Positions 11,542 to 20,872 of a stretch of DNA of 24,882 bases are shown one piece after another. The translations under genes were made by a program, and so were the position numbers. Source of the DNA: Dehalococcoidales bacterium (lineage in GTDB: Bacteria; Chloroflexota; Dehalococcoidia; Dehalococcoidales; BS750m-G39); NCBI GenBank assembly GCA_035528255.1, contig DATKYX010000043.1, forward strand, positions 1 to 24,882. The letters are read 5' to 3'. Below the pieces are notes generated by a model. It was given only the letters and a program-made list of their open reading frames with translations. It was not told the origin of the DNA and made no database searches. Numbering within the stretch: position 1 is the stretch's first letter; each line of letters opens with the position of its first letter.

Positions 11542-12837
11542 TTACTCTGTCGGCCACGGCAGCTTCGGATAGATGGGGTCTGCGGTGCGGTGTTCGTCGT
11601 TGTCGACGACTTCAAAGATGCCGCTCTGCCACTGCCCGATTTGTCCGGAGTAGCATGCCTGCGGCAACAGGCCGCCGCCATTTTCACCCTGAATATCCCA
11701 ATACATGTCTCCTATTATTGTGTCGAAATGGGCGGTCCTGTAAACTTCCAGGATTGCCTCGGTATCAAGGGTGGCAGCCTCTTCGATGGCCTGCTGGAGG
11801 TACTGGAGACTGGCATAGTATACATTAGCACCCCACCAGTCCTGATTGCCCATGCCAACCAGGCCCGTCAGCTTATCCGCGAACTCAGCGAGTGCGGGTG
11901 AGCTATTCCTGTTCCACGCGCCCTCACCCATAACACCTTCCAGAGCGGGGCCGAACACGAGATTGAAGAACTCGAAGTTACAGCCCGGGCCAATCAAGAC
12001 GCAATCCGGGTTGAACTCCAGCGCCATGGCAGTCTGCATGAAGAGCATATTCTGGTTCGGATAGCAGAAGCAGCAGAAGATATCGGGGTCCAAAGCCTTG
12101 GCTTCCTCGATTATCGGGTTCATATCCGAGATAGTAACCGGTATGCTCGTGGAGCCCACGACCGTGATGCCATTCAGGGCGAATTCGCCTTGGGCGGCAG
12201 CGTTATATTCGGCGCCGTGCAGGTCGGCCATGTACATGATGTATGCCGTCTTAGCCCCTGCCTCTACCATGAGTTCGGTGAACACGGGTATCTGGAAATG
12301 GTTGGCGTAGTTCAAAACGGAGACGACGTAAGGCATGTCGGGCATCACCGGCTCGAGGGTGGTGGCGCCGCCTTCGCCGCAGAGCATGAGTGTCTCGTAT
12401 TTATTGGCGATAGGCGCCGCGGAAAAGAGCATGGCGGTGCCGGTCGGCCCGAAGAGGAAGTCGACATTGTCTTCCGTGATCAGCTTCTCGAGATTCCTGG
12501 TGCATGCGGCCGGGTCGCTGGCATCATCGTACTCTATTATTCTGACCTGAAGCATCTTGCCAGCCACATTGATGCCGCCGGCGGCGTTGACTTCTTCAGC
12601 CCACATCTTATAGAGAGGGGCGAAGCCATAGTCCTGGAAACCGGCCTGCGGGCCGGTGATATCCCGGGAAGCGCCGATGACGATTTCATCTTGTTCTGGC
12701 GGAGTTGGTCCGGTTGGTTCGGTGGGTCCGGTTGGTTCGGTCGGTCCGGTTGGCTCGGTTTCTTTTTCACAAGCAACCAACAAGCCGCTGAACAGCAACG
12801 TCACCACCAACAATACCAATAATATTTTCTTGCTCAC
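11542..12837 (-). CDS. HAAT ABC substrate-binding lipoprotein (LivK-like, type I periplasmic-binding fold)
   Basis: GTG start after AAAGGAG; lipobox LLVAC; Pro/Thr linker; EVNAAGGINVAGK, YDDASDP, VDFLFGP. Confidence 0.88.
   Translation of the reverse strand: MSKKILLVLLVVTLLFSGLLVACEKETEPTGPTEPTGPTEPTGPTPPEQDEIVIGASRDITGPQAGFQDYGFAPLYKMWAEEVNAAGGINVAGKMLQVRIIEYDDASDPAACTRNLEKLITEDNVDFLFGPTGTAMLFSAAPIANKYETLMLCGEGGATTLEPVMPDMPYVVSVLNYANHFQIPVFTELMVEAGAKTAYIMYMADLHGAEYNAAAQGEFALNGITVVGSTSIPVTISDMNPIIEEAKALDPDIFCCFCYPNQNMLFMQTAMALEFNPDCVLIGPGCNFEFFNLVFGPALEGVMGEGAWNRNSSPALAEFADKLTGLVGMGNQDWWGANVYYASLQYLQQAIEEAATLDTEAILEVYRTAHFDTIIGDMYWDIQGENGGGLLPQACYSGQIGQWQSGIFEVVDNDEHRTADPIYPKLPWPTE
12707..12760. 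repeat. 3 x 18-bp in-frame tandem repeat encoding (T/P)EPTGP units in the lipoprotein linker
   Basis: GGTCCGGTTGGTTCGGTG / GGTCCGGTTGGTTCGGTC / GGTCCGGTTGGCTCGGTT. Confidence 0.95.
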
Positions 12838-18280: not shown

Positions 18281-19375
18281 TTATTTGGCGACATAGCCGC
18301 TGACCACCAGGTCGTCCCCCAGCCTTCCCATCTTTACCCTCTCCAGATGGAACGACTCGGCGACCTTGCTCACGCCCTCGCCGGCAACGGCCGCCTTTGC
18401 CTCCGCCCCCCCGATGATAATCGGGGCGATAAAGGCGATAACCTTATCCACCAGCCCCCGGTCGAACAGGGAGCCGAGAAGAATGCCGCCCCCCTCCACC
18501 ATAACGCTGGTGATTTCCCTCTCGCCCAACACCTTGAGCAGCTTCTCCAAATCAACCACCTCATCGGGGGTGGACGGTTCCAGCACCTCGGCGCCGGCAT
18601 CGGTAAAAGCCGCCCGCTCCTTGGGGCCGAGCTTTTGTCCCAGCGCCAGCAGCGTCTTCCCCGGCTCTTTGAATATCTTTGAGTCCAGCGGCGTGCGCCC
18701 GTTGCCGTCCACAATCACCCGCAACGGCTGCTTTCGGGCTCTGCCCCCCTTTCCCCCCGAACAGCGGGTGGTCAGGTGGGGGTTATCCGCCAGCAGCGTA
18801 TTGACCCCGGCCATAATGGCGTCGCTGGTATAGCGCAAAAAGTGGACGAATTTCCGGGACTCTATCCCGCTAATCCAGCGGGAATCGCCCGTCTTGGTGG
18901 CAATCTTCCCGTCCAGGCTCATGGCGAACTTGGCGGTGACGAAGGGCAGGCCCGTGGTGATGAACTTGATATAGGCTTCGTTGACCTCCCTGGCTTCTGC
19001 TTCGTGCTCGCCCAGGGCGGTCTTAATCCCCGCCTTCTTAAGCTCCTCCTGCCCCCGCCCCAAAACTATCGGATTGGGGTCGAGCATGGCCATGTGCACC
19101 TCGCTGACGCCGGCGGAGATGATAGCGCCGGTGCAGGGCGGAGTCCGCCCCTGGTGGGCGCAGGGCTCCAGGGTGACGTACATTGTGCCCCCCTCCGCCT
19201 CCCTGCCCGCCTGTTTCAGAGCGAGAACCTCGGCGTGATGGGAGCCCGGCGGCTGGGTATAGCCCTGCCCCACAACCTCGCCCCCCTTAACCACCACCGC
19301 CCCCACCGCGGGGTTGGGGCTGGCATGCCCCAGAGCCAGCTTGGCCAGAGAGAGCGCCTGCTCCATATAGTCCAT
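18281..19375 (-). CDS. ribD: Riboflavin deaminase/reductase
   Basis: PNPAVG, HAE, TLEPCAHQGRTPPC, AMSLDGKIA, VEGG. Confidence 0.97.
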   Translation of the reverse strand: MDYMEQALSLAKLALGHASPNPAVGAVVVKGGEVVGQGYTQPPGSHHAEVLALKQAGREAEGGTMYVTLEPCAHQGRTPPCTGAIISAGVSEVHMAMLDPNPIVLGRGQEELKKAGIKTALGEHEAEAREVNEAYIKFITTGLPFVTAKFAMSLDGKIATKTGDSRWISGIESRKFVHFLRYTSDAIMAGVNTLLADNPHLTTRCSGGKGGRARKQPLRVIVDGNGRTPLDSKIFKEPGKTLLALGQKLGPKERAAFTDAGAEVLEPSTPDEVVDLEKLLKVLGEREITSVMVEGGGILLGSLFDRGLVDKVIAFIAPIIIGGAEAKAAVAGEGVSKVAESFHLERVKMGRLGDDLVVSGYVAK

Positions 19376-19453: not shown

Positions 19454-19545
19454 GGGGCAGCGTACCCCCCAGGTTAAGGAGTTTACTCATTAGGGCGGGC
19501 TGGGTGGGACAACAAGACGTACGCTAACAAGATAAGGTGGGGCGG
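19454..19545 (+). repeat. G-rich intergenic repeat copy
   Basis: GGGG-CAGCGTA-CCCC hairpin, then CCAGGTTAAGGAGTTTACTCATTAGGGCGGGCTGGGTGGGACAACAAGACGTACGCTA. Confidence 0.85.
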
Positions 19546-19623: not shown

Positions 19624-20166
19624 ATGAAAACAATTCTCCGCGACGTCCTGATAACGCTGGCTATAGCCCTGGCCATCTTCTTCTTTCTCAGGGCAAGCGT
19701 CCAGGCTTACAAGGTAATAGAGTGCTGCATGGAGCCCAACTACGTTGAGGGCGAATGGCTGCTGGCCAGCAAAGCGACCTACTGGTTCCACGAACCCGAA
19801 AGGGGTGACGTGATAATACTCGACCCGCCCTTTGATACCGAAGAGGTCTATATCAAGCGTCTCATCGGCCTGCCCGGCGATACGGTAGAGGTAAAAGACG
19901 GCGCGGTCTACCTTAACGGCACCGCCCTGGACGAGCCTTATATAAAGGAAGCCCCCACCTACACCTTCCCCCTGATAGAACTCGGCGGGGACGAGTACTT
20001 TGTCCTCGGCGATAACCGCAATAACGCCAACGACTCCTCAAAAGGCTGGTTGACATCCCGCGACGCCATAATCGGCAAAGCCTGGTTTTCATACTGGCCG
20101 ATAAGTGAATGGGGAGGGGCCAACAACTACCCGCTGGAGGACCAGCTCGAAGCCGCTACCGAGTAA
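19624..20166 (+). CDS. lepB: Signal peptidase I (S26) with Cys at the nucleophile position
   Basis: One N-terminal TM; CCMEP (box B), PERGDVII, YIKRLIGLPGD (box D), YFVLGDNRNN (box E). Confidence 0.9.
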   Translation: MKTILRDVLITLAIALAIFFFLRASVQAYKVIECCMEPNYVEGEWLLASKATYWFHEPERGDVIILDPPFDTEEVYIKRLIGLPGDTVEVKDGAVYLNGTALDEPYIKEAPTYTFPLIELGGDEYFVLGDNRNNANDSSKGWLTSRDAIIGKAWFSYWPISEWGGANNYPLEDQLEAATE

Positions 20167-20209
20167 GCCAACGCCCTCGAAGGACATAAGGAGAATCCAG
20201 GGGGGGTTG

Positions 20210-20285
20210 GGAGGCATACCCTCCAGGTTAAGGAGTTTACTCATTAGGGCGGGCAGGGTGGGACGAAAAACCCACGTTCGCCAGG
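20210..20285 (+). repeat. G-rich intergenic repeat copy
   Basis: GGAGG-CATAC-CCTCC hairpin, then AGGTTAAGGAGTTTACTCATTAGGGCGGGCAGGGTGGGACGAA...ACGTTCGCCA; 46/48 identical to 19463-19510. Confidence 0.85.
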
Positions 20286-20302
20286 GTCAGGGTATTAAGG
20301 GG

Positions 20303-20872
20303 GTGAGCCAAATAAACACCGAGGAAATCTTCGAAAAAGCGGGGGCGGTACTAAAAGGCCACTTCCTGCTCACCTCCGGCTTACACTCCCCCGTCTACTG
20401 GGAAAAGTTCAAGGTCCTGCAGTCCCCACCCCACACCGAGCAACTCTGCCGCATGATTGCCGACCGCTTTCGGGAGCAAAAAATCGATGTGGTTGCCGCC
20501 CCCACCACCGGCGGCATCATCCTCGCCTTCGAAACCGCCCGCCAGCTGGGAGTCAGGGGCATCTTCGCCGAAAAGACGGGCGAAAAAGAGCGGGCTTTCA
20601 AGCGCGGCTTCAATATCGAACCCGGCGAGCGGGTGCTCATCGTCGACGACATCCTCACCACGGGCGGCTCCCTCCGCCAGACGATAGCGGCAGTAAAAAA
20701 GCTGGGCGGGGAAATCGTCGGCATCGGCGTTATGGTTGACCGCTCCGAACATGATATGGACTTCGGCGTTCCCCTCTTCAGCTGCCACCGCGCCCAAACC
20801 GTAACCTACTCCCCCGAAGACTGCCCCCTGTGTAAAGCTAAAATCCCCCTGGTCAAACCCGGCGGCGGTTAA
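20303..20872 (+). CDS. pyrE: Orotate phosphoribosyltransferase
   Basis: GHFLLTSGLHS, VLIVDDILTTGGS (PRPP motif); start placed at in-frame GTG 20303 rather than ORF-track 20105 (start uncertain). Confidence 0.93.
   Translation: MSQINTEEIFEKAGAVLKGHFLLTSGLHSPVYWEKFKVLQSPPHTEQLCRMIADRFREQKIDVVAAPTTGGIILAFETARQLGVRGIFAEKTGEKERAFKRGFNIEPGERVLIVDDILTTGGSLRQTIAAVKKLGGEIVGIGVMVDRSEHDMDFGVPLFSCHRAQTVTYSPEDCPLCKAKIPLVKPGGG

Follow-up and report, generated by a model that had tools for sequence, protein, structure and literature searches.

Signal peptidase I is the textbook example of a Ser-Lys dyad protease, is a recognised antibiotic target and has proved essential wherever this has been tested. To our knowledge, the nucleophile is a serine in every characterised member. 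In the E. coli enzyme, work by Klenotic et al. in 2000 and the crystal structures are said to show that Ser278 hydrogen-bonds the amine of Lys145, and the engineered S90C leader peptidase of Tschantz et al. in 1993 reportedly retains activity while becoming sensitive to N-ethylmaleimide, which makes Cys-Lys chemistry feasible on this scaffold. Ser278, the box E serine, is required in E. coli for optimal activity only (PMC2913515). No paper turned up by our literature search describes a natural Cys signal peptidase I, and when the LexA/signal-peptidase superfamily was surveyed structurally in 2026, the nucleophile was taken to be serine and cysteine went unmentioned (PMC12984324). Proteins with a cysteine at this site are nevertheless present in the databases, where they are annotated plainly as 'signal peptidase I', and here we describe one of them together with its relatives.

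The window, by which we mean the whole stretch of DNA analysed (24,882 nt of contig DATKYX010000043.1, Dehalococcoidales bacterium assembly GCA_035528255.1), holds a 180-aa open reading frame at 19624..20166 on the forward strand, which is the sole long frame in that interval. Its codons 33-36 are GAG TGC TGC ATG, read directly as E33, C34, C35 and M36. An earlier reading of the same DNA, made from its letters and translations only (the sequence-only reading), had placed Cys35 at the catalytic Ser site, found the general-base Lys78 intact and seen the box E Ser and Arg replaced by Ala135 and Ser139; all three assignments hold, as the following features show.

19624..20166, + strand: CDS of the Cys-type signal peptidase I, 180 aa (profile matches, alignment, AF2 model).
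19627..19698, + strand: N-terminal membrane anchor, residues 2-25, with type II topology as in Gram-positive signal peptidases (model helix 2-25; K2 and R6 before the hydrophobic stretch).
19720..19722, + strand: Glu33 at position -2, the E. coli Ser88 position, which is Gly in most Ser-type relatives (alignment).
19723..19725, + strand: Cys34, a non-conserved neighbour that completes a vicinal pair (position -1 varies among Cys-type sequences).
19726..19728, + strand: Cys35 (TGC) at the box B catalytic Ser site (aligned to SpsB Ser36; kept in homologues; the same in metagenome contigs).
19849..19881, + strand: box D, YIKRLIGLPGD, with the general-base Lys78 (AAG, 19855-19857; alignment, Lys78 invariant in alignment A1).
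20008..20040, + strand: box E, GDNRNNANDSS, with Ala135 (GCC, 20026-20028) at the E. coli Ser278 site and Ser139 at the Arg282 site (direct reading and alignment).
18281..19375, - strand: ribD, the divergent upstream neighbour (tblastn of flanks).
20105..20872, + strand: downstream frame of a pyrE-like orotate phosphoribosyltransferase, whose true start probably lies inside the frame (ORF reading and tblastn of flanks).

The assignment to the bacterial family rests on several comparisons. The protein matches PF10502 (Peptidase_S26) at 6e-36 with 124.3 bits against a cut-off of 22.9, and TIGR02227 (bacterial signal peptidase I, equivalog) at 1.7e-36 with 125.6 bits against a cut-off of 47. The S26B-type profile TIGR02228 gives 16 bits only, below its 51.85-bit cut-off, and the base is a Lys, so the protein does not belong to S26B. 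When compared with solved structures by phmmer, Cys35 falls on Ser36 of S. aureus SpsB (4wvh) and on the alanine of its S36A mutant (4wvg), while box E is paired with GDNREVSKDSR, which puts Ala135 at the Lys-orienting Ser and Ser139 at the Arg. Lys78, M36, G129, D130, N131, R132, D137 and S138 are invariant in alignment A1. An AF2 model built on a 54-homologue alignment (pLDDT 91.8) predicts one N-terminal helix (2-25) followed by a beta-rich catalytic domain, and its best structural matches in Foldseek are SpsB and E. coli LepB, at the top, and SipA, so that the well-preserved fold suspected from the sequence is also what the model predicts. The positions of K2 and R6, taken with homology, suggest that the anchor leaves the catalytic domain outside the cytoplasm. 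Homology and fold, N-terminal anchor, box D Lys and lepB orthology are thus those of an S26A enzyme, and in its homology, fold and locus, and in the job it probably does, the protein is a bacterial P-type signal peptidase I. However, box B has Cys35 in place of the Ser nucleophile and box E has Ala135 and Ser139 in place of Ser and Arg; with two defining catalytic features missing, the Ser nucleophile and the box E Ser, this is not an ordinary P-type member.

An unusual catalytic residue in a single contig could come from a sequencing or assembly error, or from a gene in decay. Logan contigs from two soil metagenomes cover the entire gene (770 and 772 nt, with 2 and 8 differences), and in both of these independent assemblies codons 33-35, 78 and 135 are free of differences. 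The 3' half of the gene is additionally covered, with 0 differences, by short contigs from two metatranscriptome libraries, which is compatible with transcription and equally with carry-over of contaminating DNA. In a search of 5.8 billion proteins, the 120 best matches had 91-54% identity and most read x-C-M-E-P at box B; the few with a named source are labelled signal peptidase I and come from Dehalococcoidales or Dehalococcoidia MAGs. Cysteine, rather than a serine encoded by AGC or TCC, is retained in ~120 homologues, to roughly 45-55% identity. Genome copies use both TGC (11) and TGT (4) for it, and the residue has therefore outlasted synonymous change. In Ser-type relatives the nucleophile codon is AGC or AGT in 91/106 cases, one transversion away from TGC/TGT. 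Pairwise dN/dS inside the Cys-type family is 0.09-0.39, instead of the value near 1 that the sequence-only reading had named as a sign of decay, and 119 of 120 Cys-type sequences carry Lys78; dN/dS and conservation together point to purifying selection on both the Cys and the Lys. Nothing was found in favour of an artefact or a decaying gene, and given the metagenome contigs, the more than 100 homologues with Cys and the dN/dS values we regard the chance of either as close to nil.

The surroundings of the gene gave two further observations. Its intergenic flanks (window 19466-19530 and 20225-20283) reach a word depth of up to ~190, compared with ~8.5 in the gene, and recruit many extra metagenome contigs with many loose ends, a pattern in keeping with a dispersed intergenic repeat. 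A promoter and terminator scan around the Cys-type lepB gave nothing informative.

To place the gene among its relatives, we drew a sample of 121 genomes from the order, each at least 85% complete and together spanning 36 family codes, and assigned a type to virtually all strong S26A matches in them. Among 116 classified genomes, 100 have the Ser type only and 15 have the Cys type, the latter comprising 8/9 genomes of the window's own family (f1), 3/3 of f18, one each of f3, f14 and f16, and a fifteenth, in f28, with one C/S form (Cys nucleophile, box E Ser). In all 15 Cys-type genomes the Cys-type gene is the only S26A gene, with no Ser-type copy in addition, so that the canonical lepB which might have been expected elsewhere is found in none of them, with the proviso that all genomes compared are MAGs, in which the absence of a second gene is never certain. 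An S26B peptidase is absent as well from G092 (92% complete), G017 and G058 (93%), G062 and G112 (88%) and G102 (87%), leaving six near-complete genomes without any other S26 peptidase; none was found in the window's own genome either, which is 68% complete. Eight of the 15 additionally carry a Ser-His S26B peptidase of the SipW/archaeal type (G028, G069, G120, G082, G013, G015 and G081 among them), and these SipW-like enzymes might share some of the cleavage.

Gene order gives the same picture of a replacement in situ. By tblastn of the flanks, a divergent ribD upstream and pyrE downstream accompany the Cys-type loci and 29/30 Ser-type loci with enough flank, and ribD and/or pyrE adjoin both Ser-type and Cys-type lepB across the order. 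From this common ribD-lepB-pyrE slot it follows that the Cys-type gene is the positional lepB orthologue, its nucleophile swapped in place. As the sole orthologue of an enzyme that is essential wherever tested, and as a gene under purifying selection, it is most simply read as encoding an active enzyme. We therefore consider it likely, from the comparison of sequences, that this is the housekeeping type I signal peptidase of its lineage of uncultured, anaerobic Dehalococcoidales, working with a Cys35-Lys78 dyad instead of Ser-Lys. The natural thiol signal peptidase proposed in the sequence-only reading is accordingly the option favoured by conservation, orthology and sole S26A status, as well as by the coupling of active-site residues described below.

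The same reading had offered a repurposed, non-catalytic paralogue as the other option, that is, a dead pseudo-peptidase or chaperone of the SipA kind which binds signal peptides or pilin-like peptides uncut while another enzyme cleaves. This is not without precedent, as dead S26A paralogues exist in the class (Ala copies in the tandem arrays of G080 and G026, Gly/Gly copies in G176 and G266), some Cys-type genomes carry S26B enzymes, and the E. coli enzyme is less active when its box E Ser is lost (PMC2913515). However, dead copies in relatives always sit beside a canonical copy, whereas the Cys-type gene is the single-copy positional lepB orthologue and six near-complete genomes have no other S26 peptidase. 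Cys and Lys are moreover near-invariant, and a non-catalytic protein has no reason to keep both; SipA retains neither dyad residue, nor the box E Gly (PMC4049620), whereas Lys78 and Gly129 are kept here, as are Asp130 and Asp137. We consider a non-catalytic role very unlikely.

The paralogues met in this survey merit a short description. Tandem arrays of two or three S26A genes occur in family f27 (L071 at G080:C191:500-2800, L073 in G026 and L023 in G110), and one copy in the arrays has Ala at the nucleophile (VVSQAMEPGL, VISDAMEPGL) and Q-[LM]-K-R in box D; from its motifs it looks like a conserved pseudo-peptidase beside active copies. In family f83, L219 and L242 (G176 and G266) have Gly at both dyad positions (LHGTGMEPTI, EYVGRII) and a box E reading GDNRCGATDSH, and are apparently non-catalytic paralogues. 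The S26B genes of same-genus and same-family relatives are separate genes (L057, 1450-2016, in G069; L058, 1453-2022 on the reverse strand, in G028; also L059, L060 and L061) for proteins of ~180-215 aa with N- and C-terminal membrane segments and the motifs VYSGSMEPQL ... SHRV ... KGDAN. Those of G028 and G069 reach 1e-28 on TIGR02228, and the distribution inside the genus is patchy. A longer S26B form, with the Ser-His domain placed after several membrane helices, is found in G051 (L039, 3-707), and similar frames of 312-455 aa occur in G111, G081, G003 and G013. The gene after L039 encodes a large secreted-looking protein, and the two may form a dedicated peptidase-substrate pair.

The second unusual residue of the active site, Ala135, turned out to be tied to the first. 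To the 120 matches we added 126 ORFs derived from genomes and 150 representatives from a search in which HMMER was run exhaustively over 1.84 billion cluster representatives, giving 396 S26A sequences aligned to one profile. With the nucleophile given first and the box E residue second, their states are S/S 252, C/A 116, S/T 7, S/A 4, C/S 3 and A/S 4. The co-variation of Cys with loss of the box E Ser that had been put forward for checking is thus plainly visible, with Ala in 116 of the 119 Cys-type sequences that have an aligned box E residue. At the codon level, AGC predominates for the box E Ser and the Ala is GCC, two steps away, and a possible intermediate, Thr (ACC), is found in one Ser-type family.

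A reverse test gave a consistent result. We searched the DNA of 401 genomes of the class for sequences encoding G-D-N-R-x-x-A-x-D, ignoring the nucleophile, and beyond the window's family this recovered four S26A genes from another order (family code f81), each of them Cys-Lys, together with two dead copies (both dyad residues Gly) and one Ser-His variant; an ordinary Ser-Lys enzyme with box E Ala was not encountered in these 401 genomes. A pattern search that included the Ala box yielded 30 Cys/Ala genes, some of which form another subclade with the sequence VQYSCMLPNI. The consistent pairing of Ala with Cys suggests that the box E hydroxyl suits the Ser-Lys pair in particular, and that without this pair it is a disadvantage or of no use.

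Other neighbouring positions behave differently. Glu33, at position -2, is found in 103/120 Cys-type and 0/~265 Ser-type sequences, and other Cys lineages have Gly, Tyr or other residues there. Since Cys subclades with Gly or Tyr at -2 exist, Glu33 is a lineage feature, while Ala135 is the near-constant partner. The position of Arg282 is His, Arg or Ser in both Ser-type and Cys-type sequences. We had considered the change at this position, noted in the sequence-only reading as Arg to Ser, as part of the Cys syndrome, and rejected it, as His and Arg occur there in Ser-type relatives too.

Rare single-change states, with either Cys and a retained box E Ser (G-P-C-M plus GDNRNNSSDSR) or Ser and a box E Ala, were seen in L076 (G081, family f28), L015 (G021), L118 (G111), P0043, P0081, P0072 and P0117; judged from their residues, these C/S and S/A states are possible evolutionary intermediates of the Cys/Ala pair. 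A different departure is found in L228 (G372, family f49), P0156 and P0250, P-type signal peptidases in which the Ser is kept and the general-base Lys is replaced by His (TQIHRIVGLPG). These three also lack the box E Ser, having Ala, Pro or a gap, and would represent a Ser-His dyad on a bacterial S26A scaffold.

The number of times the Cys type arose was addressed with trees from which the trait columns had been removed. The FastTree tree of 388 rows needs 11 nucleophile changes and the best IQ-TREE gene tree of 146 rows needs 7, with the well-supported branches forcing just 1. Cys/Ala sequences fall into about 5-6 clusters on an unresolved backbone, and an AU test did not reject a single clade of all 28 Cys/Ala rows (p 0.42). 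For these reasons we dropped a claim of convergent, independent origins, and one origin and several cannot be told apart from these trees. An independent-pairs sign test never went in the wrong direction and was not significant; this and the few forced events mean that the raw 116:3 ratio overstates the number of independent events. What the sequences do give is a Cys/Ala pair kept together over ~45-55% identity between subclades and in at least two orders, with single-change states rare.

The vicinal cysteines of the window protein raise the question of redox control, which the sequence-only reading had linked to anaerobic life. In such a gate, oxidation would close a strained Cys34-Cys35 disulphide and reversibly stop export processing in this organism. 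A CC pair is present in the window protein and some close relatives (G112 and G102 among them), and a lone catalytic thiol on the outer face would be oxidant-sensitive in any case. However, CC occurs in only 11/120 Cys-type sequences, where position -1 is more often T (39), H (27) or R (13), and it varies inside the genus, with T-C in G069 and G028. The pair therefore cannot explain the family and is at best a local add-on. Furthermore, the nucleophile is the sole Cys of the protein in 101/120 Cys-type sequences, which leaves no disulphide partner within the protein. As a property of the family the switch does not stand, and for this organism we give it little credence.

With the dead and redox-gated readings set aside, the preferred Cys-Lys peptidase would work as follows. 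The single N-terminal helix would anchor the enzyme with its catalytic domain on the outer face of the membrane. The Cys35 thiol or thiolate, activated by Lys78 and perhaps forming a pair with the protonated Lys, would attack the bond after the small -3/-1 residues of a signal peptide, and the resulting thioester acyl-enzyme would then be hydrolysed by water. The change of box E Ser to Ala would be a coupled active-site adjustment to a larger and more acidic nucleophile, and we infer that the Ala gives room for the sulphur and/or the thiolate-ammonium ion pair. Alternatively, the box E Ser could have drifted away neutrally once the swap had taken place, since in E. coli this residue is needed only for optimal activity. 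The arrangement would be viable because these are anaerobes with no detectable extracytoplasmic thiol-oxidising machinery: in our sample of 121 genomes from the order, neither VKOR nor a DsbB match above cut-off was found. A catalytic thiol that stays free outside the membrane is thus plausible in these organisms, and as both proteins are absent from Ser-type relatives too, this is a permissive context and not an explanation of the swap.

Thioester acyl-enzymes undergo aminolysis more readily than oxyesters, and a thiol enzyme of this kind could in principle pass the cut protein to an amine or hydroxyl acceptor at the cell surface, as sortases and other Cys transpeptidases do. Two further points speak for such acyl transfer, namely that Glu33 at -2 is seen only with Cys and that these bacteria reportedly rely on surface layers and have no peptidoglycan wall. 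However, we saw neither partner genes nor sorting motifs nor an acceptor pathway, the neighbours being ribD and pyrE; the substrate-binding residues resemble those of ordinary signal peptidases, and several Cys lineages have no Glu33. We regard transfer in place of hydrolysis as highly improbable. Somewhat broader, and in our judgement unlikely, is the proposal that a whole bacterial lineage has turned its only general signal peptidase from a serine into a cysteine protease, the first natural thiol member of an otherwise all-serine Ser-Lys clan, and that the active site evolved along with it, through Ser to Ala in box E and, in the window's family, Gly to Glu at -2. In the boldest form of this proposal the thioester would be used for surface transfer, or would make export intrinsically sensitive to oxygen or electrophiles, adding to strict anaerobiosis.

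Possible substrates of the preferred Cys-Lys signal peptidase were sought in the genome with a home-made signal-peptide scan, a noisy method whose 183 candidates include many non-coding frames and membrane anchors. One candidate for predicted signal-peptide cleavage is a 552-aa protein on contig C21 (...PASA|ASV), a crude and anecdotal example. The window also encodes a LivK-like substrate-binding protein (11542-12837, - strand) that begins with a lipoprotein signal (lipobox LLVAC), after which comes a (TEPTGP)n-like linker rich in Pro, Thr and Glu. Its lipobox makes it a lipoprotein and hence a substrate of signal peptidase II, not of signal peptidase I; binding proteins here are tethered lipoproteins processed by signal peptidase II.

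If the Cys-Lys reading is true, an essential protease would have been shown able to change its catalytic type in place. The C/S and S/A intermediates and the box E Ala partner would make the family a good subject for work on how an active site adapts to a new nucleophile. The reading further predicts that protein export in these anaerobes, which are widespread in soil and the subsurface, is sensitive to thiol reagents and oxidants.

Compared with described systems, the Cys35 protein stands closest to the S26A signal peptidases (SpsB, 4wvg-4wvj; B. subtilis SipS; E. coli LepB, 1b12/1kn9/1t7d), with which it shares fold and domain order. Like P-type signal peptidases it has one N-terminal anchor, a small Gram-positive-type cap and recognisable boxes B-E, including the Lys of YIKRLIGLPGD, the Met after the nucleophile and the Gly, Asp, Asn and Asp of box E, and like the lepB of sister families it occupies the same genomic slot. 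Unlike P-type enzymes it has a Cys nucleophile, Ala at the Ser278 site, Ser or His at the Arg282 site and Glu at -2. SipA/LepA-type proteins of S. pyogenes (PDB 4n31; PMC4049620) have in common with it the S26A fold and a non-canonical residue at the nucleophile, but SipA has Asp and Gly at the dyad and Asn at the box E Gly, and it belongs to a pilus cluster with true signal peptidases alongside (PMC4049620). The Cys35 protein keeps Lys78, Gly129 and the box E Asp, has the housekeeping neighbours ribD and pyrE and has no Ser-type S26A copy alongside, and so differs from the SipA type in each respect. SipW, Sec11 and the archaeal signal peptidases (S26B) belong to the same clan but are Ser-His enzymes, whereas the Cys35 enzyme uses a Lys base and is membrane-anchored and housekeeping. 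The nearest chemical counterpart is the E. coli S90C 'thiol-leader peptidase', which reportedly has the same Cys-Lys dyad in an S26A scaffold; that enzyme was made in the laboratory by point mutation and still has its box E Ser, whereas the Cys35 enzyme is natural, ancient and conserved, carries Ala in box E and is the only S26A of its genome.
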